Both the position numbers and the translations under genes were made by a program. From Alphaproteobacteria bacterium (GTDB lineage: Bacteria; Pseudomonadota; Alphaproteobacteria; UBA828): a stretch of DNA of 64,000 nt. The stretch is from NCBI GenBank assembly GCA_963422645.2, contig CAXXVO010000007.1:704001-768000 (forward strand), in the 5' to 3' direction. Shown here one piece after another: positions 216-62,843 of this stretch; the first letter of the stretch is position 1, and each line of letters starts with the position of its first letter. Under the pieces are notes generated by a model. The model was not told where the DNA came from. It saw only the letters and a program-made list of their open reading frames with translations, and did not search any database.

Positions 216-1303
216 GGTTTCGCTGCGCGCGCCGGCTGCTCGAAGCCGGGCGGGGCGCCGAGCGCCGGGTGCGCGAACGCCATCGCCTTGAAGAGTGCGC
301 CCATTCCGTGCGCGCCCGTGAGGCGGCGCAGCGCGGCGTCGATTTCCACCGCCTGTTCGGCGCTTGTGCTCTGCCGCAGCCGGGACGCCCGCGCGTCGAT
401 CCCCAGTGCTCCCAGAAAATCTCCCTGGCGCACGGGCCCGAAGACTTGGGCGCCGGCCTGCCGCGCTGCAGCTGACAATGAGGAGAAGTCCACGTGGGCG
501 GTCAGGTCGGCGGTTCCCGGATCGTCCAGCACGCCGTGGCGGCGGTGTTGCTTCACTGCCTGCAAGGAGTCGCCGATCCCAGTCTGCTCGTACCCGTAGT
601 CGATAATGAGGGCCGCACCGCCATCCGCCGCAACCCGCTCGGCGAGAGCGCCAGCCAGCGCTTCGCGCGCTGGAGCACGTTCGACGATGGCGCCGGGAGG
701 CGCACATCCGAGGCCGATCTCGACGGGGACCGAATTGGTGGCGGCGAAGCGGAGCGTCCGGGACGAGGGCGCGAGCGCGACGACGCGTTCCTGCCAGGTG
801 CCGTCGATCCGCTCGAATTGCTGGATTGGCAATGCGTCGAAGAACTCGTTCGCAACGATCAACGCAGGGCCGGGCGGCACTGTCTCGAAGTGTTCGTGCC
901 AGGTCGGTCGGGCGTCGGTCAGCCGTGCGGCCTGCTCTGCGCGCAGGCTCTCGCTGGTCTCCACAAGGTGCAGGTCGATGGCGGCGCGGAAGGCCGGCAC
1001 TGTCGCCGCGGCGCGCAATGCGTCGGCGAGGAGGGTGCCGCGTCCGGGACCAAGCTCAACCAGGCGCAGGGGGTGCGGTTGGCCCATGCTCTGCCACACC
1101 GCTGCGCACCAAAGCCCGATCAACTCGCCGAACATCTGGCTCACCTCGGGCGCGGTGATGAAGTCGCCGCAAGCGCCGATGGGTCGGCCGCGGCGGTAAT
1201 AGCCGTGCTCGGGATGATGGAGGCAAAGCTCCATGTAGGCGGCAACGCTGATCGGCCCGTGGCGCCTTATTCGCTCCCGAATTTCTACCCCGAGAGCCGT
1301 CAT
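212..1303 (-). CDS. SAM-dependent methyltransferase, MidA/NDUFAF7 family
   Basis: GDFITAPEVSQMFGE, ELGPGRGTL, ANEFFDALP, IDYG, DLTAHVDF motifs; lies between lgt and pgeF. Confidence 0.9.
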   Translation of the reverse strand: MTALGVEIRERIRRHGPISVAAYMELCLHHPEHGYYRRGRPIGACGDFITAPEVSQMFGELIGLWCAAVWQSMGQPHPLRLVELGPGRGTLLADALRAAATVPAFRAAIDLHLVETSESLRAEQAARLTDARPTWHEHFETVPPGPALIVANEFFDALPIQQFERIDGTWQERVVALAPSSRTLRFAATNSVPVEIGLGCAPPGAIVERAPAREALAGALAERVAADGGAALIIDYGYEQTGIGDSLQAVKQHRRHGVLDDPGTADLTAHVDFSSLSAAARQAGAQVFGPVRQGDFLGALGIDARASRLRQSTSAEQAVEIDAALRRLTGAHGMGALFKAMAFAHPALGAPPGFEQPARAAKP

Positions 1304-2130
1304 TACCCGGCCTGCCCGCCCGCTCGCCCGTCAACCCGAGGCACCGGGGGGATGCGGAGGATGAGGAAGAGCCCGACCAGGATCATCGGGAGCGAGAGCA
1401 CCTGCCCCATGCTGATGCCGGGCAGGATGAAGCCGAGGAACGCATCCGGTTCGCGGAACAGCTCGGCGATGATCCGGGCGACGCCGTAACCCACCAAGAA
1501 GAGCCCGGTGACGGTGCCCGGCCGACGGACCACCCGCCGCATGTGCACGGCGACCGCGAGGATAGCGAACAGGACGAGGCCTTCCAGGACTGCCTCGTAT
1601 AATTGGCTCGGGTGGCGCGGCTCAGGCCCGCCGCCCGGGAACACCATCGCCCATGAAACGTCGCTCACCCGACCGTACAGCTCGCCGTTAATGAAATTCG
1701 CTATACGCCCCAGGCAGAGACCGATCGGCACCTGTGCGCAAACCGCATCAGCAACGGAGAGCAGGCTGATTTTCATGAAGCGGCTGTAGAGGACCACGAC
1801 GACGAGCACGCCCAGAGCGCCGCCGTGAAAGGACATCCCGCCCTGCCAGACCACGAAGATTTCACCGGGATTGGAGAAGTAGTACCCCGGTTGGTAGAAC
1901 AGCACGTAGCCCAACCTGCCGCCCACCACGACACCGAGTATGCCAAACACCAACAGGTCGTCGGCGTGGCGCTTCGTCAGACCATCGATGCGTTTCTCGG
2001 CGAGATAGCGGACGTACCGCCAGCCAAGCAGCAGGCCGACGACGTAGGACAGCGCATACCAGCGGATGGCGACGGGACCGATCTCGACGGCCACCGGGTC
2101 GATGGCGGGGAAGGCGAGGGCGAGGGTCAT
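1303..2130 (-). CDS. lgt: Prolipoprotein diacylglyceryl transferase
   Basis: IRWYAL, GGRLGYVLFY, GGMSFHGG, GRIANFINGELYGR, RHPSQLYE motifs. Confidence 0.97.
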   Translation of the reverse strand: MTLALAFPAIDPVAVEIGPVAIRWYALSYVVGLLLGWRYVRYLAEKRIDGLTKRHADDLLVFGILGVVVGGRLGYVLFYQPGYYFSNPGEIFVVWQGGMSFHGGALGVLVVVVLYSRFMKISLLSVADAVCAQVPIGLCLGRIANFINGELYGRVSDVSWAMVFPGGGPEPRHPSQLYEAVLEGLVLFAILAVAVHMRRVVRRPGTVTGLFLVGYGVARIIAELFREPDAFLGFILPGISMGQVLSLPMILVGLFLILRIPPVPRVDGRAGGQAG

Positions 2131-2309
2131 CGGTAGGGATCGTCCCTGTTCAAGATCGTCGTGAAGGGCGCGGCGCGGCGCGCGCGCAGCAAGCGCACCA
2201 TCTGCGCTTCCCTAGAGTTCCACGCGGCGCGGCCGGTTATAGGGTCGTGCCCTTGCCACCCGCAAGCACCGTCCGCACACCGAGGCTCGGGCCGAAGACG
2301 ACAATTCGG

Positions 2310-3188
2310 TCAAATCGTCCGCAGCAGCCCGCTCGTTACCAGTCGTAGTTTTTGCGTCGCCGTGAACCTGATGCGCCGGCCTGCGACCGGGAAACCGGCA
2401 CGCTCGATGCGGTCGAGATAGGCCTCGTAAACACTGCGCATGAGGATGGCAGGCCGCATGGAGCGGCGTTCCGAGCGCGGCAGAGCCTCGCTCGCTGCGC
2501 CGAAGTGCCGACGCGCCATCTCGCCCAGAGTGCGGCAAACTTTCTCCACCCCCGGCGTGCGCCCGATCGCCTCCGGCTTGATGTCCGCGAGACCCTGCTT
2601 CGCCAGCAGCTCTTGCGGCAGGTAAATGCGGCCGCGCTTCGCGTCCTCGGCCACGTCGCGGAGGATGTTGGTGAGTTGAAAGGCCTGGCCGAGATGGCCT
2701 GCGAAGGTGGGAATGCTACGCGCACGGTACCCGAATATTTCGACCGAGAGCAGGCCGACACAGCCGGCGACGCAGTGGCAGTAGCGTTCGAGCTCGGCGA
2801 GCGTCGGCCGCAGCATGGCGCCGCCGCCGTCCATCTCGAACCCTTCCAGGATCTCCATGAAGTGCTTCTCGGCGAGCCCGAAGCGCTCGACCGGGACGGC
2901 GAGCGCTTTCGTTACCGGGTGGCGCGGCATGCCTTGGTAGAGCGCCCGGATTTCGCCGCGCCAGGCGTCGATCAGCGCGCGCGACTCCGTCGGGTCCTCA
3001 ATCTCGTCGGCGACGTCGTCGGTCTCCCGACAGAAGGCATAGAGCGCCAGCATCGCCTCGCGCTTCTCGCGCGGCAGCAGCATCATCGGAAGGAAGAACG
3101 AGCTTCCCGACGCCCGGGTCACTTCGGCGACGTAGCGCTTCGGGTCGGGCGCCTCCGGGATCGGCAGACTGACCGCCGCACTCACCAT
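2310..3188 (-). CDS. hpnD: Presqualene diphosphate synthase HpnD (squalene/phytoene synthase family)
   Basis: SGSSF, YAFCRETDDVAD, QLTNILRDVAEDAKRGRIYLP; real start ATG 3188 overlaps hpnC stop (ORF-track extension to 3746 is spurious). Confidence 0.85.
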   Translation of the reverse strand: MVSAAVSLPIPEAPDPKRYVAEVTRASGSSFFLPMMLLPREKREAMLALYAFCRETDDVADEIEDPTESRALIDAWRGEIRALYQGMPRHPVTKALAVPVERFGLAEKHFMEILEGFEMDGGGAMLRPTLAELERYCHCVAGCVGLLSVEIFGYRARSIPTFAGHLGQAFQLTNILRDVAEDAKRGRIYLPQELLAKQGLADIKPEAIGRTPGVEKVCRTLGEMARRHFGAASEALPRSERRSMRPAILMRSVYEAYLDRIERAGFPVAGRRIRFTATQKLRLVTSGLLRTI

Positions 3189-4066
3189 GCCTGGACGACG
3201 CTGCGCAGCACGAGGCCGACGCGGCTCACTTTGGGCACTCTGATACGGCCGGCGAGGGGGTCGCCCTTCGCGAGCCTGCGCTGGAGCGCCCAGGCCAGCC
3301 TGACGATCACCGCGCACTCCCAGCGGAAGCGCCGGCGGCGCACCGAGCGTGGCATCGCCTCGGCGCGCCGGAGCAATTCCGCTGTCCCATCGAGACACCG
3401 GTCGATGGCATTGCGTACCGCCGGCGACGCCCGCCGCTCGGCGAGCATCTCGACACCGCCGCCAGCCTCCTGCAGCCAGGGTTCCGGCACGTACACGCGG
3501 TTCAGCGTGAGGTAATCCTCGCCGCAATCCTGCAGATGATTGAGCACCTGCAGGGCATTGCAGAGCGCGTCCGAGCCCTCGATATCGGCGTGGCCGCTTT
3601 CGCCGTGGATGTCCATCATCACCCGGCCGACCGATGCCGCCGAGCGCCGGCAGTAGTCCATCAGCTCGTCCCAGTCGGCGTAGCGCAGCTTGGTCGCGTC
3701 CTGGATGAAGGCGGAGAGCAGGTCGCGCCCGTTCTGCGCCCGGCATCCGGTTTCGATCAGGCTCCGGTGATAGGGGACGGCCCAGTCGGGGAGCGCCGCC
3801 TCGTCCTTGCCGAGGGCATCACTCGCAGCCTGCAGCCGGGCCACCTTTTCGGCTGCCGGGATGGTCGGCGAATCGGCGATGTCGTCGGCCTTGCGGGCGA
3901 AGAGGTAGAACGCATGGACCTGGGGCCGGCAGTCAGGCGGGATCAGGAAGGAGCCGACCGGAAAGTTCTCGCTGTTCGCGCGGATCAGCGCACGGATGCT
4001 CTCCTCGCGCGCGGCCGGCGCCTGGCCGCCCGCCGGTTCCACCGCTGCGGATGCGGAAACCGTCAT
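3182..4066 (-). CDS. hpnC: Squalene synthase HpnC
   Basis: ENFPVGSFLI, FARKADDIAD, YCRRSAASVGR, LQVLNHLQDC motifs; directly upstream of hpnD. Confidence 0.88.
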   Translation of the reverse strand: MTVSASAAVEPAGGQAPAAREESIRALIRANSENFPVGSFLIPPDCRPQVHAFYLFARKADDIADSPTIPAAEKVARLQAASDALGKDEAALPDWAVPYHRSLIETGCRAQNGRDLLSAFIQDATKLRYADWDELMDYCRRSAASVGRVMMDIHGESGHADIEGSDALCNALQVLNHLQDCGEDYLTLNRVYVPEPWLQEAGGGVEMLAERRASPAVRNAIDRCLDGTAELLRRAEAMPRSVRRRRFRWECAVIVRLAWALQRRLAKGDPLAGRIRVPKVSRVGLVLRSVVQAW

Positions 4067-4072
4067 CGGCCG

Positions 4073-5299
4073 CTAGGTGTCGTTGGCGAGCAGCCGCTCG
4101 GCGTGCTCCCTCGCAGCGCTGTCCATCGCGTACACATCGTCCAGCCCGTCGATGGCGCGATGGTTGGTCTGCTCGAGGCAGCGCTCGACCATCTGCGCGA
4201 TCTCCAGGAAGCCAATGCGGCGCTCCAGAAAACCGCCGACGGCGACCTCGTTGGCGGCGTTGAGCACGATCGGCGCACTGCCGCCTTGCGTCAGCGCCTC
4301 TTGCGCGAGCCGAAGCGCCGGGAAGCGCACCGGGTCCGGCGGCTCGAAGGTGAGGCGGCCGAGCGTCGCGAGGTCGAGCCGGGGCGAGGGCGCCGCCATG
4401 CGGGCCGGCCAGGCGAGGGCGTAGGCAATCGGCGTGCGCATGTCGGGCGTGCCCAGCTGCGCAAGCACGGAGCCGTCCTCGTAGGCCACCATGCTGTGGA
4501 TCACCGATTGCGGATGCACCAACACCTCGATCTGCTCCGCATCGACCGGGAACAAGTGAAAGGCCTCGATCATCTCGAGGCCCTTGTTCATCATCGTCGC
4601 CGAATCCACCGAAATCTTGGCGCCCATATCCCAGTTGGGGTGGGCCACCGCCTGTTCGGGCGTGGCCTGTGCCATGGTTTCCACCGACACCTCGCGGAAG
4701 GGCCCGCCCGAGGCGGTCAGCAGGATCTTCTCGACGCTGTCTACGCGCTCGAAGTCGAACACCTGGTAAATGGCGTTGTGTTCCGAATCGACCGGAAGCA
4801 GCGTCGCGCCGCCGCGCTCGACCTCCGCCAGCATGAGCGAGCCGGCGCAGACCAGGCACTCCTTGTTGGCGAGGCCGATGACGGCACCCTGCGCGGCGGC
4901 CGCGATTGTCGGCCTGAGCCCTGCCGCGCCGACGATCCCGGCCATGACGAAATCGGCGGGTGCCGCTGCGGCCTCGACCAGGGCCTCGCGTCCAGCCGCA
5001 GCAACGGTATCCGTGCCCGCGAGCGCCTCCTTGAGCGCGCCGTAAAGCGTGGCATCGCCGATGACGGCCTGCCTCGCACCCACAGCGCGGGCCTGTTCGG
5101 CGAGCTGCGCCACGCTTCGCTGGGCAGTCAATGCCTCGACCTCGAAGGCCGCCGGGTGGCGGGCAATCAGGTCGATGGTGTTGCAGCCGATCGAACCCGT
5201 AGAGCCCAGAATGGTGACGCGCCTGGGCGCCGCTCCCTCGCCGGCGGCGGGGATATACGGCTCGGGCGCGACGTCGACGGCCGCGTCCATCGGCGTCAT
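4073..5299 (-). CDS. dxr: 1-deoxy-D-xylulose-5-phosphate reductoisomerase
   Basis: LGSTGSIG, LANKE, PVDSEH, TASGGPF, HPNWDMGAKISVDSATMMNKGLE. Confidence 0.97.
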   Translation of the reverse strand: MTPMDAAVDVAPEPYIPAAGEGAAPRRVTILGSTGSIGCNTIDLIARHPAAFEVEALTAQRSVAQLAEQARAVGARQAVIGDATLYGALKEALAGTDTVAAAGREALVEAAAAPADFVMAGIVGAAGLRPTIAAAAQGAVIGLANKECLVCAGSLMLAEVERGGATLLPVDSEHNAIYQVFDFERVDSVEKILLTASGGPFREVSVETMAQATPEQAVAHPNWDMGAKISVDSATMMNKGLEMIEAFHLFPVDAEQIEVLVHPQSVIHSMVAYEDGSVLAQLGTPDMRTPIAYALAWPARMAAPSPRLDLATLGRLTFEPPDPVRFPALRLAQEALTQGGSAPIVLNAANEVAVGGFLERRIGFLEIAQMVERCLEQTNHRAIDGLDDVYAMDSAAREHAERLLANDT

Positions 5300-49411: not shown

Positions 49412-49825
49412 CTAACGCAAGGCGTCGATCGTCTGCACGTGGCCGCCTGCGGCGTAGGTCAGGATGGCGTAATCGGCGGTGAGCAGCGGGACGCCGTAAT
49501 GGCGGGCGGTTGCGACGATGAAGCGATCTGCCGGATCGGCGTGGAATGCGCCCGGCAGCCGGACGCTCTCGATGGCGATCGCGGGTTCGATCGGGAGGAG
49601 CCCGATCGCTGGCAAGGCGAGGGCCGCCAAAATCCACTCTCTGACCTCGCGCGAGAGGCGGAGGCGGTCCTTCTCGGCCAGGAGCGCGATTTCCCATGGC
49701 GTGATTGCGGAGATGCCTAGTCCATCCGCTTGTTCCGCTGCCGCAATAGCGGCGCGTGCGTCGGCGCCGAGCCGCCGTTCGTCTTCCACGGCCCAGATTA
49801 GCGCATGCGTGTCGAGCACGATCAC
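49412..49825 (-). CDS. vapC: VapC PIN-domain toxin
   Basis: VLDTHALIW, SAITPWEI, HADPADRFIVATA, LLTAD. Confidence 0.92.
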   Translation of the reverse strand: MIVLDTHALIWAVEDERRLGADARAAIAAAEQADGLGISAITPWEIALLAEKDRLRLSREVREWILAALALPAIGLLPIEPAIAIESVRLPGAFHADPADRFIVATARHYGVPLLTADYAILTYAAGGHVQTIDALR

Positions 49826-50064
49826 CGAACGGCGTTCCAGTCGGCGGGGTCAGCTGCAGGCCCGAAGGGGTCGTCGTAAGCCAGCACCGACCCCTTCATT
49901 GCGCCGATGATTGAGCGTTCCGTGTTCTCCGGCCGCACCGGCGACAGCACCGCGACTGGTTTGCCCCGATTGGTGATTGTCACGGGTTCGCCATCCTCGG
50001 CCATCTCATTGATAATACGGAGACATTTCGCTTGGAACGCGGCTGCGGCAATCGCCTTGCCCAT
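49822..50064 (-). CDS. Phd/YefM-family antitoxin
   Basis: AAAFQAKCLRII...VTITNRGKPVA; GTGA coupling to vapC. Confidence 0.9.
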   Translation of the reverse strand: MGKAIAAAAFQAKCLRIINEMAEDGEPVTITNRGKPVAVLSPVRPENTERSIIGAMKGSVLAYDDPFGPAADPADWNAVR

Positions 50065-51020: not shown

Positions 51021-51137
51021 TCAGGCGACCAGCCAGCCGCGATCGGTGATCGTCACAGGCTCGCCGTCCTCGCCCATCTCATTGATAAGACGGAGATATT
51101 TGGCCTGAAATTCGGCCGCCGCGATGGTCTTGCCCAA
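51021..51137 (-). pseudogene. Truncated Phd/YefM antitoxin paralog
   Basis: LGKTIAAAEFQAKYLRLINEMGEDGEPVTITDRGWLVA* closely matches 49822-50064 in this window. Confidence 0.8.
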
Positions 51138-51145
51138 TAATTCAG

Positions 51146-52272
51146 TGTAGCCGGCCAGAAGTCTTTGCGAATCGCGGCCAGAAGTCTTTGCGAATGGCCT
51201 GGAAAACAGGCTGATTTTCGGGGCTGATTCGGGCTGGAAAAACGGCCTCTGCATCGGCCATGCACGGGCCGTTCAGGGGCGCGGAATTCGGTGTGCACGG
51301 CCCCTGCAAGGGTTCTATTCCGCCTTCTCCTCCGCCTCGGGCGCGGGGGGCTGGGCGGGCCCGGCTTCGGGCGGGCGCCAGTGTCTGTCGTCGGCTGCGT
51401 CGAAGCGCTCGAGCGCGCCCGCGTCCATGGTTTCGATGCGCTTGCGGAGCGCGCGGCAGAGCCGGCGCAGGCGGTCGCGTTCGGCGTCCTGCTCCTCGGT
51501 GGCGGCGCCGCGCAGCCGCCGTCTGGCCTCGTGCTCCCAGCTCCTTGCCCCGTAGGCCTTCCGGATGCGGCGGGTTGCCTCCCGGTCGAGCCCTTGCGCC
51601 CTTTCTTGCCGGAGGTCTTCGGCGGCGGCGCGCTCGCCCGCTTCGGCGATCATGGCCCATGCCGGCTTGGGGCTGGCGTCCGGGTCGGGGCCGTAGTCCG
51701 GCAGGCCGGGGATCGGGTTCCAGCCGTAGGCCTTCCATGTCGCCTCGTCGAACATCGTGTCGATGCCGCCGGGGAAGGAGCCCGGCAGGAAGCCGTGGGG
51801 CGGACGCAGGCCGTCGTGCGCCATGAGCCGGCGGATCGCGTCCTGGATGTCGATCACCGTGTCATCCTCCGTCGGGCCGGGCGAGGGACGAGAACCTCTC
51901 TCCGTTCGACTGCCCTTCTCCGACGAGGAGATCGCACGCGACCCGCGGCGCGCCGATCTCGAAGGGAAGGAGGCCGGCGCGGGGACAACGCCGGCATCGT
52001 AGACCGGGCGAGGCGAAGCCCCGCGCCGCACCCCGATTTACCGGCGAATCCGCACCCCCGGAACCGCCCCGATTTACAGGCCTTTCAGCACCCCTGAAAC
52101 GCCCCGAAAATCACCGTTTCCAGCCAATTCACGGCCCTTTCCGGGCCGGATTCGCAAAGACTTTCGTCCGGCCCGCCAGACCCCGGAAACGCCGCCAACC
52201 CCTTGACCGTCCGCCATCTTCCGCCTTCTTCCCGGCATCTTCCGGATTCGCAATGACTTTCGTCCCCCTACA
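51146..52272 (-). mobile_element. Non-autonomous Mu/Tn7-like mini-element (1127 bp)
   Basis: Ends TGTAG...CTACA, 27-bp imperfect IR (21/27), 5-bp TSD TTCAG at 51141-51145 and 52273-52277, two AAGTC(T/A)TTGCGAAT sites per end. Confidence 0.8.
51315..51857 (-). CDS. Hypothetical protein, possibly phage tail-fibre-associated
   Basis: 180 aa, GGAGG RBS and GTG start; PKPAW followed by charged helices ending DDRHW; resemblance to tail-associated small proteins is a weak impression. Confidence 0.5.
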   Translation of the reverse strand: MIDIQDAIRRLMAHDGLRPPHGFLPGSFPGGIDTMFDEATWKAYGWNPIPGLPDYGPDPDASPKPAWAMIAEAGERAAAEDLRQERAQGLDREATRRIRKAYGARSWEHEARRRLRGAATEEQDAERDRLRRLCRALRKRIETMDAGALERFDAADDRHWRPPEAGPAQPPAPEAEEKAE

Positions 52273-52358
52273 TTCAGCCTGCGATATAACACGTACATAT
52301 ACTATATACATATATCAGAAGGCGTCAATCGGGCTAAGCCCGTCTCCTGTGGGAGGGC

Positions 52359-59560: not shown

Positions 59561-59875
59561 CAGACTTCCTGACCTCTGCTGATTTTAGGTGACACGAGCC
59601 GCGCGGATTCCGAGGCCCCGTCGATGTCGTAGACTATGCGCAGACGGGTGCCGGGGAAGACCGTTTCGGTGGCGTTCAGGTCGCTCAGAACCGCATCGAT
59701 CCAACGGTCGCAGGCGTCGTTTGCGAGGCCAAGAATGTGGACCCGCAGGAGGCCATTGTTGTTAAGCGTGGAAAAGTGACCCCCTATTGGGGGTGATCGG
59801 CGTCCAAAATTGACCCCCTTGGATTTGTGTCCATGAACACACCTCGTCGTTTGGACGGACGGGGTGGTGGGGGAG

Positions 59876-61390
59876 ATGCTGGTTGTGGAAACGATCGCGA
59901 AGATCCGTCGGGATCATCTGGTGAAGGGCGTTCCGATCAAGAAGCTCGCCCGGGATTTGAGGGTTTCCAAGAACACGATACGCAAGGTGGTGCGGGGCGA
60001 TGCGACCTCGCACAGCTACGAGCGCAAGATCCAGCCGATGCCGAAGCTTGGGCTGTGGGTGGAGGAGCTTGAGCGCCAGCTGAAGGCCAACGAGAAGAAG
60101 GCACGCAAGGATCGGCTGTCTCTTCTGCGGATTCATGAAGACCTTGTGTCGCTGGGCTACAAGGGCGGCTATGACGCGGTTCGCCGCTATGCCAGGGCCT
60201 GGCGGCGCCGGTGGCGGCTGTTGTCGCCGGCGCAGGCCTATGTGCCGCTGATCTTCGATCCCGGCGAGGCCTACCAGTTCGACTGGAGCCACGAGTACGC
60301 GCGTCTGTCGGGCGCGACGACCAGGGTGAAGGCGGCGCACATGCGGCTGTGCCACAGCCGGATGTATCTGGTCCAGATCTTTCCCCGCGAGAGCCAGGAG
60401 ATGGTCTTCGAGGCGCACGAGCGTGCCTTCCGCTTCTTCGGCGGGGTCTGCCGGCGGGGCATCTACGACAACATGAAGACGGCGGTGAGCACGATCTTCG
60501 TGGGCAAGAAGCGGGACTACAACCGCCGCTTCCAGGAGCTGTGCTCGCACCATCTGGTGGAGCCTGTGGCGTGCACGCCAGGGGCTGGCTGGGAGAAGGG
60601 GCAGGTCGAGAAGCAGGTGGGTGACCTTCGCGGCCGCCTGTTCGTGCCCATCCCGCGGGGCCGCTCCTACGCCGAGATCAACGAGTGGCTGATGGATCGG
60701 TGCATCGAGGACGCCAAGAAGCATCCGCATCCGACAATCCCGGGCAAGACGGTGTGGCAGGTGTTCGAGGAGGAGCAGCCCTTCCTGATGGCGTATCGCG
60801 GCCCCTTCGACGGCTTCCATGCCAGCGAGGTGTCGGTCTCGAAGACCTGTCTGGTGCGCTTCGACAACAACCAGTACAGCGTCGCGGCCCGCGCCGTCGG
60901 CCGGCCGGTGGACGTGCGGGCCTATGCCGATCGGATCGTCATCCGCCAGGACGGCGAGACCGTTGCCGAGCACCCCCGCAGCTTCGGGCGCGGCCGGTTC
61001 GTCTACGATCCGTGGCATTACGTGCCGATCCTGACGCGGAAGCCCGGCGCGCTACGCAATGGCGCGCCCTTCAAGGACTGGCAGTTGCCCAACGCGCTCG
61101 GCCGCCTGCGAACCCGGCTCGCGGGCCACGACGACGGCGACCGGCAGTTCGTCAAGGTGCTCGCGGCGGTGCTGGAGGACGGACTGGAGGCGGTTGAGGC
61201 GGCCTGTGCCGAGACGCTCGACTGCGGTGCCTGCAGCGCCGACGTGGTGCTCAACATCCTCGCCCGGCAGCGCCAGCCGGCACCGCCGGCAATCATCCCG
61301 ACGCCCGAGGGCCTGCAGCTTCGCCACAAGCCGGTAGCCGACTGTCAGCGCTACGACAGCCTGAGGGAGGCCGGTCATGGAGCGTCATGA
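59876..61390 (+). CDS. istA: IS21 transposase
   Basis: [31 protein letters not shown]. Confidence 0.95.
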
Positions 61391-62105
61391 TGTGCTGGAG
61401 ATGATGACCCAGCTGAAGCTCGCAGGTATGCGCGCCGCTTACGACGACATCCTTGCCGACGGGCTCAAGCGCCGCCATCCGGTGCAACAGATCATCGGTA
61501 CGCTGCTGCAGGTCGAGATCGCCGACAAGAGGGCCCGCTCGATCAAGTACCAGATGGCCTCCGCCAAGCTGCCGACGGTCAAGGAGCTGGCCGACTTCGA
61601 CTTCGCCGCCTCGCCGGTCAACGAGCCCCTGATCCAGGAGCTCGCCGGCGGCGGCTTCCTCGAGGGCAAACGCAACATCGTGCTGGTCGGCGGCACCGGT
61701 ACCGGCAAGACCCATCTCGCCGTCGCCATCGCGCGGTCCTGCATCCGCAAGGGCGCGCGCGGCCGGTGCTACAACGTCGTCGACCTGGTCAACCTCCTCG
61801 AGGCCGAGCTTCGCGCCGGACGCCAGGGCCGCACTGCAGACCAGCTCGTCCGCCGCGACTTCGTCATCCTCGACGAGCTCGGCTACCTGCCCTTCGCCCA
61901 GGCCGGTGGGCAGCTGCTCTTCCATCTGATGAGCCGGCTCTACGAGCGCACCTCGATCGTCATCACCACAAACCTCGCCTTCGGCGAATGGCCATCCGTC
62001 TTCGGCGACCCCAAGATGACCACAGCGCTGCTCGATCGCCTCACCCATCATTGCGAGATCATCGAGACCGGCAACGAGAGCTGGCGCTTCAAGAACCGCT
62101 CCTGA
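61377..62105 (+). CDS. istB: IS21 helper ATPase
   Basis: GGTGTGKT Walker A, ILDELGY Walker B, LDRLTHH. Confidence 0.96.
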
Positions 62106-62843
62106 CCCGCCGCCGGCCTCCCTTGCGGCCCGGTTGCCCCGGTGGGCCAACAGGGACCCCCCACGCGGCTTCGCTCCGCGTAGCGCAGGGCGCCACACGA
62201 AGCCGCGCGGGTCCCCCCTATTGGCTACCGGGACAACCTCCGCCGTGCCACTCAGGGGGGTCAATTTTGCACGCCGATCGGGGGTCAGTATTGAAAGCCG
62301 ATTGACACCCCGCTTCGCCCTCGGCCAGGTAGCGCCGTCGTGCGCGCTGCACCGTCGCGCGCGAGACAGCGAAAGCGTCAGCCAGTTCCTGCGGCGAGAC
62401 CGCGCTGATCGCCGCGAGGCGGCCGATCCGCAAGAGCATGGCCGTGCGGTCATCGGCGGCGTGGCTGTCAAAGGGAATGAGGTTGGAAAAGTAGGTGAAG
62501 GTGTCGTCCGAGATCAGGACGGCGAAGCAGCTGTTGCCGATCGAGACCGCCTCTGGAGGGCACATTGGGAGGGTACTGGGCATGGTTGAGACCGTGCAAT
62601 TGGTATCAAATTATACTATCAGACCTCGGGCGCGACACCCAGCGAAAAACCGCCTGAAACAACCGAAATGTATCAGAATTCAAGGAGTTCCCGGCACGCT
62701 GCCCAGAACAGCCAGCATCACGAGGTCAGGAAGTCTGAGGCTACGCCAGATCGCTTGACATTGGAGACTGCGATCCTGTATGGAATGTTCCCGTTTTGGG
62801 ATCAATGTACTTGACACGTAATCGGAAACGGTGCATATAGCTT

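Follow-up and report, generated by a model that had tools for sequence, protein, structure and literature searches.

Bacteriophage Mu prefers target sites of the form N-Y-(G/C)-R-N. Mini-Mu was engineered in the laboratory and retains nothing of the phage but its ends. In the sequence record of Mu, we take the right end to consist of contiguous repeats next to the late genes and the left end to have a terminal repeat about 100 bp from the next ones; at both ends the sites were placed by eye. In the B3/D3112-like phages of Pseudomonas and Stenotrophomonas, the head is Mu-like and the tail is flexible. The myovirus BcepMu (NC_005882) has two arms that diverge from a control region in the center. 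The leftward arm holds early genes only, from the transposase (in the annotation an rve transposase of Tn552/IS1604 type) to GemA and Mor, while terminase through tail are all read rightward. A further model is provided by pairs of autonomous and non-autonomous transposons of the Ac/Ds type, in which internally deleted copies retain the terminal and subterminal sites and need transposase from elsewhere, as in the Ds-del elements of PMC3260210.

The element studied here (the mini) is an insert of 1127 bp in the window, by which we mean the whole 64-kb stretch of DNA that was analysed. Like Mu, it has TG...CA tips and a 5-bp duplication, and the insertion sites of its family lean toward the NYSRN preference given above for Mu. 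Its "A" end corresponds to the right end of Mu, with the sites close together and on the late-gene side, and its "B" end is a spaced array like the left end of Mu. Mu has three sites per end, whereas two are visible here. The family shares with Mu homologs of GemA, gp27, the Mu-type portal, MuF and gp36, but differs from it in having a siphovirus-like tail module with GpJ. The spaced end of Mu carries the repressor, ner and A, whereas terminase, portal and MuF read out at the spaced end of the family. The family-type transposase, unlike that of Mu, had no matches to the Pfam MuA-specific families. With BcepMu the family shares the two divergent arms. However, the early arm of the family continues beyond GemA into terminase, portal and MuF, the other arm begins at the protease, and the tail is siphovirus-like. 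By portal, the nearest isolated phages were transposable phages of the B3, D3112 and Stenotrophomonas types, at a low identity of 34-38%. Among the matches listed, the B3/D3112-type portal was on the plus strand, some 16 kb into the record, which we read as a collinear Mu-like order.

The mini is very probably a naturally formed "mini" version of a siphophage of the Mu-like transposable kind, one with a Mu/B3/D3112-type head and BcepMu-like divergent arms. An engineered mini-Mu is likewise reduced to its ends, but the present mini is natural and is one of about 42 deleted copies. Ac/Ds systems and bacterial MITEs differ in that the parent here was a phage, with no autonomous copy in the genome. 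At 1.1 kb and with an intact gene of 175-180 codons, the mini is not a classical non-coding MITE, and no second copy of its junction accompanies it, as would be expected of a MITE. A full-text search of the literature turned up no account of transposable-phage minis that occur naturally in dozens of copies flanked by duplications. Taken alone, the mini is a commonplace relic; what is unusual is the family, together with the layout of the parent phage. The gene order of the family, with late genes read toward both ends and the transposase in the center, is absent from Mu and BcepMu and probably from B3.

Ends and target-site duplication

The mini occupies positions 51146-52272 of the window and has the tips TGTAG...CTACA. 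The left tip reads TGTAGCCGGCCAGAAGTCTTTGCGAAT from 51146 onward, and the right tip, read inward from 52272, is TGTAGGGGGACGAAAGTCATTGCGAAT. The 14-mer AAGTCWTTGCGAAT was found twice on the plus strand (51159 and 51182) and twice on the minus strand (52150 and 52246), with a spacing of 23 bp at the A end and 96 bp at the B end. These were the only four matches in the 64-kb window with up to two mismatches. Shuffles of the window gave an expectation of 0.33 matches, and none of 100 shuffles reached four. A scan of the element with four mismatches allowed revealed no third site at either end. The B end also contained 36-bp subterminal repeats. On the tail-gene side, the A array is a putative transposase-binding array. 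The earlier note had described TTCAG on both sides of the insert, a motif occurring twice per end at 23 and 96 bp, and the lack of a transposase. The duplications and all site positions were confirmed, and the only convincing ORF had no Pfam or PHROG match. The features are collected in Table 1.

Table 1. Coordinates of the mini, its surroundings and related features in the genome (positions without a contig prefix refer to the window)
Feature	Position	Strand	Remark
Truncated phd (antitoxin) remnant, the target gene; 38 codons, TTG start	51021..51137	-	Pfam PhdYeFM_antitox E 2.4e-4, below cut-off
Left duplication copy, TTCAG	51141..51145	.	single TTCAG at the orthologous G005 site and in the run X2 contig
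A end, TGTAG tip and two 14-bp sites (51159-51172, 51182-51195)	51146..51197	+	
ORF175, last tail-arm gene, reads toward the A end	51315..51857	-	GTG start at 51857 assumed; ATG about 12 codons inside
2OG-Fe(II) oxygenase gene, 3' remnant of about 56 bp	51858..51913	-	gene whole in sibling elements
MuF-like head-morphogenesis gene, 3' remnant (last 31 codons and stop), toward B	51907..52002	+	
Internal deletion junction, 2-bp overlap of A-side and B-side homologies	51912..51913	.	
B end, type B1, TGTAG tip inward from 52272, sites 52246-52259 and 52150-52163	52003..52272	-	
Right duplication copy, TTCAG	52273..52277	.	abuts the outer edge of the right tip
Displaced promoter/operator of the phd remnant, TTGAC and AT-rich palindrome	52278..52330	-	contiguous with phd in G005
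Tn5.2	e.g. C8:135589-140777		about 24 copies
Transposase fragments	C10:193948-194557; C16:157913-158646; C8:90973-91209		tblastn

Insertion site

The mini sits on the upstream side of the phd remnant, 5 bp from the TTG start, and splits the remnant from a promoter/operator region made up of TTGAC and an AT-rich palindrome. An intact phd-vapC paralog (49412-50064), 1 kb away, showed the identical order of box, palindrome, GCTGAA and start. About 425 bp, comprising the 3' part of phd and the 5' part of vapC, were absent from the window's genome and present in relatives. The insert had been proposed to separate a phd paralog from its AT-rich upstream region. The separation is real, but the phd copy is a pseudogene remnant. 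Since the remnant was already broken before it lost its promoter, the consequence at the level of the window is small.

An allele without the insert and with a single TTCAG, which the earlier note had suggested looking for, was found twice. In G005, a genome of the same genus, the left flank, one TTCAG and the right flank (the promoter, then a methyltransferase gene) were unbroken. A 424-bp contig from public run X2, whose species label is the one that the best holders of the stretch also bear, joined 51139 to 52272 with no differences over 272 flanking bases. Given these uninterrupted alleles, the mini is a real insertion that is polymorphic between close strains. A contig from run X1 extended from the B end into the right flank; none of the contigs from runs X1, X4 and X6, which are short, spanned the whole mini or its internal junction. 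No RNA runs holding the stretch were listed. At the orthologous site in G009 the promoter had diverged, and the joint there was uninformative.

The family in the genome

The genome is a 5.9-Mb draft of 23 contigs with a contamination score of 8.5%. Allowing one mismatch, the motif occurred 148 times in it, and the reversed control gave no match. Termini of the form TGT[AG]G-N8-motif numbered 85 (40 A, 24 B1, 20 B2 and 1 unclassified), with the tip variant TGTGG at three of them. The B2 ends had a diverged tip and an inner site about 106 bp in. Many other elements with the ends of the mini, for which a search had been suggested, are therefore present, and the mini belongs to a family of about 42 gutted phage copies in this genome.

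Facing termini within 30 kb of each other formed 25 pairs. An identical 5-bp duplication flanked 20 of them, all of which joined an A end with a B end, and the sizes of these elements ranged from 893 bp to 22,672 bp. The five pairs without a matching duplication comprised one A-A, one B2-B2 and three A-B pairs, which we would attribute to recombination between copies or to assembly. Matching 5-mers were also found at several unpaired termini on different contigs (for example C5:244783 with C6:164266, and C14:63015 with C19:154904). This suggests that copies have recombined with one another, or that joins were made in assembly. Inward extension by 30 kb from unpaired ends mostly picked up host genes.

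The insertion sites showed a preference. The central base of the duplication was G or C in 63 of 65 sites, and 26 of the 65 fitted NYSRN, against a genome background of 19.5% (binomial p ~1e-4). The sites were dispersed and their flanks differed, with no fixed attachment, res or guide-RNA-defined site.

Cargo and the internal deletion

We scanned the ORFs between paired ends against Pfam and PHROG. The cargo included GemA, an HNH endonuclease, Mu gp27 and the large terminase, together with the portal (Portal_Mu in the B2 subfamily) and MuF. Further ORFs encoded a Dam methylase, the head maturation protease, the capsid protein, Mu gp36, the virion-morphogenesis protein, GpJ-like tail tip proteins and glycine-rich proteins. 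Capsid genes occurred in only two remnants among the genome copies found. The gene adjoining the A end encoded either a 416-aa protein or ORF175, the latter preceded by the 2OG-Fe(II) oxygenase. In all 20 pairs, wherever these genes were present, MuF or its remnant read toward B and the tail genes toward A. The single gene of the mini had been noted to point toward the closely spaced end, as Mu late genes do, and A is indeed the tail-gene end, in the same way as the right end of Mu.

All of the elements were internally deleted, with junctions individual to each. Many were also interrupted by unrelated mobile DNA, including the IS21-like element, Tn5.2, elements of the IS4, IS66, IS110 and IS1595 types, and an IS with a Transposase_29 protein. 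The IS21-like element gave 67 matches with a 517-codon IstA frame, or about 70 copies by DNA cover. This IstA/IstB element was considered as a possible sharer of the ends of the mini and was rejected, as its termini differ and the 14-bp motif is absent from them.

The mini could be compared directly with its siblings. Over positions 1-768 it showed 100% identity to C18:284480-285247, a locus at which the oxygenase gene is complete. Taken over the 4.5-kb element C18:280709-285247, positions 1-768 and 767-1127 of the mini aligned to 1-768 and 4179-4539, respectively. The B part (767-1127) showed 98.3% identity to this element and 99.4% to the B side of C15:40283-45328. The MuF remnant matched residues 283-313 of 313 in tblastn at 97% identity, and full-length copies of that gene matched Pfam Phage_Mu_F and the PHROG head morphogenesis family. 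This collinearity indicates that the mini is such an element minus positions 769-4178 (about 3.4 kb), so that everything from the 3' end of the oxygenase gene to the last 31 codons of MuF was lost. The suggestion of an internally deleted transposable prophage is thereby supported, as siblings with the same ends carry Mu-type genes. A second copy with the junction of the mini was not found among the 23 elements compared.

Transposase and a 39-kb relative

No intact cognate transposase and no intact early region were found in any element of the window's genome. The MuA-specific families PF09299 and PF02914 had no match there, and the control genomes were equally silent. The 114 rve matches in the genome belonged to other IS transposases, of which some were examined, to IS21-type copies, including the four that were checked, and to copies of Tnp536, the transposase of Tn5.2. 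Four odd ones (C22:64929, C16:190938, C8:528878 and C14:6506) were inspected or lay in IS21-type contexts. A 794-aa Transposase_29 protein was rejected as a partner, since it belongs to an independent high-copy IS with its own inverted repeats. The exact double-site pattern had no match in the genome-contig or viral-contig collections. Searches with MuF against viral contigs returned two distant loci only, in a different arrangement, and in G012 there was a one-ended remnant only.

A relative with the undeleted plan was found in G002, a genome of the same genus, as a prophage of about 39 kb (contig C1, about 174073-213152). These bounds are approximate; a left tip was located, but no right (B-side) tip and no duplication. 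The left end had a TGTAG tip and two sites 22 bp apart. The scan of the leftward arm began about 14 kb inside the left tip and gave virion morphogenesis, gp36, capsid and protease; the tail genes would lie in the 14 kb nearer the tip. Rightward, the order was Dam, a 589-aa transposase, Gam, GemA, HNH, terminase, portal and MuF. The sequence AAGTCTCTGGGAAT lay about 270 bp beyond MuF and equalled the motif of the mini at 12 of 14 positions. In the undeleted plan that this prophage would represent, tail, capsid and protease genes read toward the A end, the early region with its MuA/TnsB-type DDE transposase is central, and gp27 precedes the terminase on the arm that finishes with MuF at the B end. 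Two elements with the two-arm layout were also found in a genome from a second bacterial family of the same taxonomic order (G028), which indicates that the layout is native to the phage group and does not reflect a local rearrangement. In a second phage of G002, two copies ended only 4 nt past the motif.

The 589-aa protein matched PHROG 310 "transposase" (phrog_310) at E 6e-71, and of MuA only the N-terminal domain matched it (E 0.002-0.02). In the window's genome, tblastn with this protein gave three partial matches, none of them over the catalytic core (Table 1). The fragment on C8 lies inside the 22.7-kb element, beside a homolog of the 437-aa gene that is downstream of the transposase. 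The mini itself lacks a MuA-type transposase with a MuB-type ATPase, and a complete transposase gene is present in the G002 prophage. Since the mini encodes no transposase, it is a derivative of a Mu-like phage and not a phage. As the genome holds only the three truncated fragments, the mini and the other elements are non-autonomous today.

Other sources of transposition

A resident element, the 5.2-kb Tn5.2, might supply transposase in trans through its 536-aa HTH-rve protein (Tnp536) and an AAA ATPase, in which case the family would still be mobile. Both Tnp536 (E 7e-35) and the phage enzyme fall in phrog_310, and the protein encoded next to Tnp536 belongs with phrog_296 "DNA transposition protein". 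Many Tn5.2 copies are intact and nearly identical, and Tn5.2 lies within 6 of the 20 paired phage-derived elements and several unpaired ones. However, Tn5.2 has sharp boundaries of its own, with termini TGAGCG... and without the 14-bp motif. Copies of it lie in either orientation, some of them outside the phage-derived elements, and Tnp536 shares only 24% identity (E 3e-5) with the phage-type transposase. These differences make Tn5.2 an improbable donor.

The earlier note had also offered a non-autonomous Tn7-like carrier. On this reading the mini would be a Tn7-, Tn5053- or CAST-like element moved by a machine of the TnsB/TnsC type, and the phage genes would be cargo. TGT...ACA tips, a 5-bp duplication and asymmetric arrays fit Tn7-like elements too, and the tips may resemble the terminal sequence of Tn7. 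Among solved structures, the best relative of the family-type transposase was the TnsB of a CAST (E 4e-7, residues 149-490 of the 589-aa protein); this match does not discriminate, because MuA and TnsB share one superfamily. Against a Tn7-like origin, TniQ (PF06527) had no match in the genome, and TnsA (PF08722) had two matches at E 0.006, below the cut-off, in frames of 1014 and 1027 codons, the TnsA control genomes being silent. The 65 sites are dispersed, with no single attachment site, and every cargo-bearing element has Mu-type phage genes in a fixed orientation. Moreover, Gam, GemA and Mu-type head genes are all present in the complete relative, a prophage of 39 kb. The Tn7-like carrier is accordingly very unlikely and was not sustained. 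A reading without a mobile element would have the inverted repeats paired by chance or the insert created in assembly. The contamination-scored draft gives grounds for general caution only; such a reading is virtually out of the question in view of the motif enrichment and the 20 duplication-flanked pairs, and is refuted by the two independent empty sites in G005 and run X2.

Mobilisation and timing of the deletion

In the preferred reading, that of a Mu-like phage derivative, a tetramer of the phage transposase would bind the two site arrays, and the terminal CA-3'OH ends would attack the target with a 5-bp stagger. Repair would then yield the TTCAG duplication, with the mini contributing its ends only. 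We infer that the mini was transposed by a phage-type transposase and that it was mobilised in trans. Without transposase from a related phage, it most probably cannot move at present.

The deletion of at least 3.4 kb could have preceded the insertion, so that the element moved as a mini, or could have occurred afterwards in place, and we see the two as about evenly balanced. Movement as a mini is favoured by the strain polymorphism with identical flanks. A second argument in its favour is that forty-odd independent lysogenisations, with a deletion after every one, are implausible. On the other hand, no junction was common to any two of the 23 elements compared, which counts against it, since frequent copying of already-deleted forms predicts shared junctions. 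The element C13:69397-74329 resembles C8:804491-814715 with two further deletions and with the orientation of Tn5.2 kept. Such nested relations are compatible with the copying of defective forms followed by later loss, but are not proof of it.

A broader possibility, which we put forward tentatively and rate as somewhat doubtful, is that of an Ac/Ds-like system derived from a virus. In it, dozens of deletion derivatives of transposable phages, non-autonomous, 0.9-22.7 kb long and with two end subfamilies, would have been copied around the chromosome by transposase from a master copy or an infecting helper phage, since lost. The mini would have entered the phd promoter as a mini after its strain parted from one in which the site is still empty. 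If deleted copies did move as such, phages of this kind could act as Ac/Ds families do and remodel a genome with no virions made. They could then give rise to transposon families and promote the erosion of genomes, beside the IS21-like, IS66-type and other ISs found throughout this one. The family also provides a defined set of end sequences for the study of a distant MuA/TnsB relative.

ORF175

ORF175 is the one convincing ORF of the mini. It lies on the minus strand, its codon-position GC pattern fits a real gene, and it encodes a rare but conserved protein of about 175-180 aa. A reading of 238 codons was rejected as an artefact in which ORF175 is extended upstream over the deletion junction. 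The protein had no family match in Pfam or PHROG. In a confident AlphaFold (AF2) model, with a mean pLDDT of 84.5, it was mostly helical, and no fold match at E <= 0.001 was found in PDB or BFVD. The top viral rows for the fold were a "tail assembly chaperone" and "DUF4376" at E about 1, which are leads only. We commit only to a tail-arm accessory protein; a chaperone-like role would be a guess.

Nine copies of ORF175 were found in the genome. Seven of them followed the 2OG-Fe(II) oxygenase gene, and in four of those seven a GpJ-like gene was present as well. In a collection of 5.8 billion clusters there were seven homologous proteins, one being its own cluster and six lying outside the window's genome. 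The aligned homologs had the motifs PGSFPGG, DASPKPxW and ERDRL in common. In a Rhodobacteraceae MAG, an ORF175-like domain opens a protein of 468 aa, and upstream of it the order is tape measure, DUF1833, GpJ-like protein and 2OG-Fe(II) oxygenase. The oxygenase-ORF175 pair is therefore a conserved ending of the tail module.

Deleted phage copies and resident transposons

The phage-derived elements in the window's own genome (G000), which are internally deleted copies of a Mu-like phage, frequently hosted a resident 5.2-kb transposon that we call Tn5.2, with about 24 copies genome-wide. The Tn5.2 termini read TGAGCG..., and its genes encode a 214-aa protein, a 536-aa HTH_32-rve transposase (phrog_310), an AAA_22 ATPase (phrog_296), an AAA_25 protein and a DUF3991-Toprim protein. 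Truncated phage genes were located directly at one Tn5.2 end, as if the transposon had caused deletions beside its insertion point.

The locus with two facing A ends (the tail-gene side) was flanked by CACAT at one side and CCCTG at the other. The partner of the CACAT flank was found on another contig (C6:164266), at a B1 end, the type carried by the 1127-bp mini. This arrangement looks like the product of chromosome-rearranging recombination between copies, or of an assembly join. The additional remnant on C16 retained a transposase fragment, p190, p151, Dam, the protease, the capsid, gp36 and a morphogenesis gene, which were 89-97% identical to their counterparts in the 22.7-kb element.

Insertion sequences were abundant throughout G000. 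For the IS21-like element, the 517-codon IstA frame gave 67 matches across the genome, and DNA cover put the number of copies at about 70. The IS66-type protein cluster had 31 members in the regions searched, the DNA cover of the insertion sequence encoding a Transposase_29 (PF21804) protein was very high, and IS110, IS4 and IS1595 types were also found.

Locations of the repeats, gene pairs and mobile elements
Feature	Location	Remark
Facing A ends, inverted partial tail modules between	G000:C5:244783-252171	
Additional phage remnant, ends not recognisable	G000:C16:157900-171200	cut on both sides by IS21 copies
Tn5.2 (example)	G000:C8:135589-140777	outside window
Insertion-sequence copy	about window 59800-62300	rve match at window 60260-60583
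Transposase_29 insertion sequence, tandem pair	C7:70974-76016	2 copies
Mu-like myovirus prophage, copy 1	G002:C6:486000-524659	
Mu-like myovirus prophage, copy 2	ends at G002:C6:1194268	
36-bp direct repeats	window 52031-52102	subterminal, B end
Perfect 13-nt inverted match, TGATTTTCGGGGC	window 51212-51224 / 52101-52113	A vs B subterminal regions
phd-vapC (PIN) pair, intact	window 49412-50064	
phd-vapC second copy, truncated	window 51021-51137	1 kb from intact pair
DruA-like + DDE_Tnp_1 frame, 772 codons	G000:C12:56379-58694	3 copies
DruA domain only, 281 codons	G000:C14:16996-17838	

A second Mu-like prophage

In G002, a genome of the same genus, two copies of a myovirus prophage distinct from the phage family of the mini shared 99% identity across the 8.7 kb that was compared. 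One arm carried GemA, followed by the sheath, tube, tape measure and gpU genes, and the other the terminase, capsid, baseplate and fibres. A site resembling the 14-bp motif of the mini occurred only 4 nt inside the end of both copies.

Subterminal repeats and neighbouring genes

The subterminal repeats of the mini and its 13-nt inverted match may be accessory binding sites. The phd-vapC copy adjoining the methyltransferase gene was complete in relatives but truncated in G000. Elsewhere in G000, a defence-protein domain (Druantia DruA-like, PF14236) and a transposase domain (DDE_Tnp_1) were combined within single frames.
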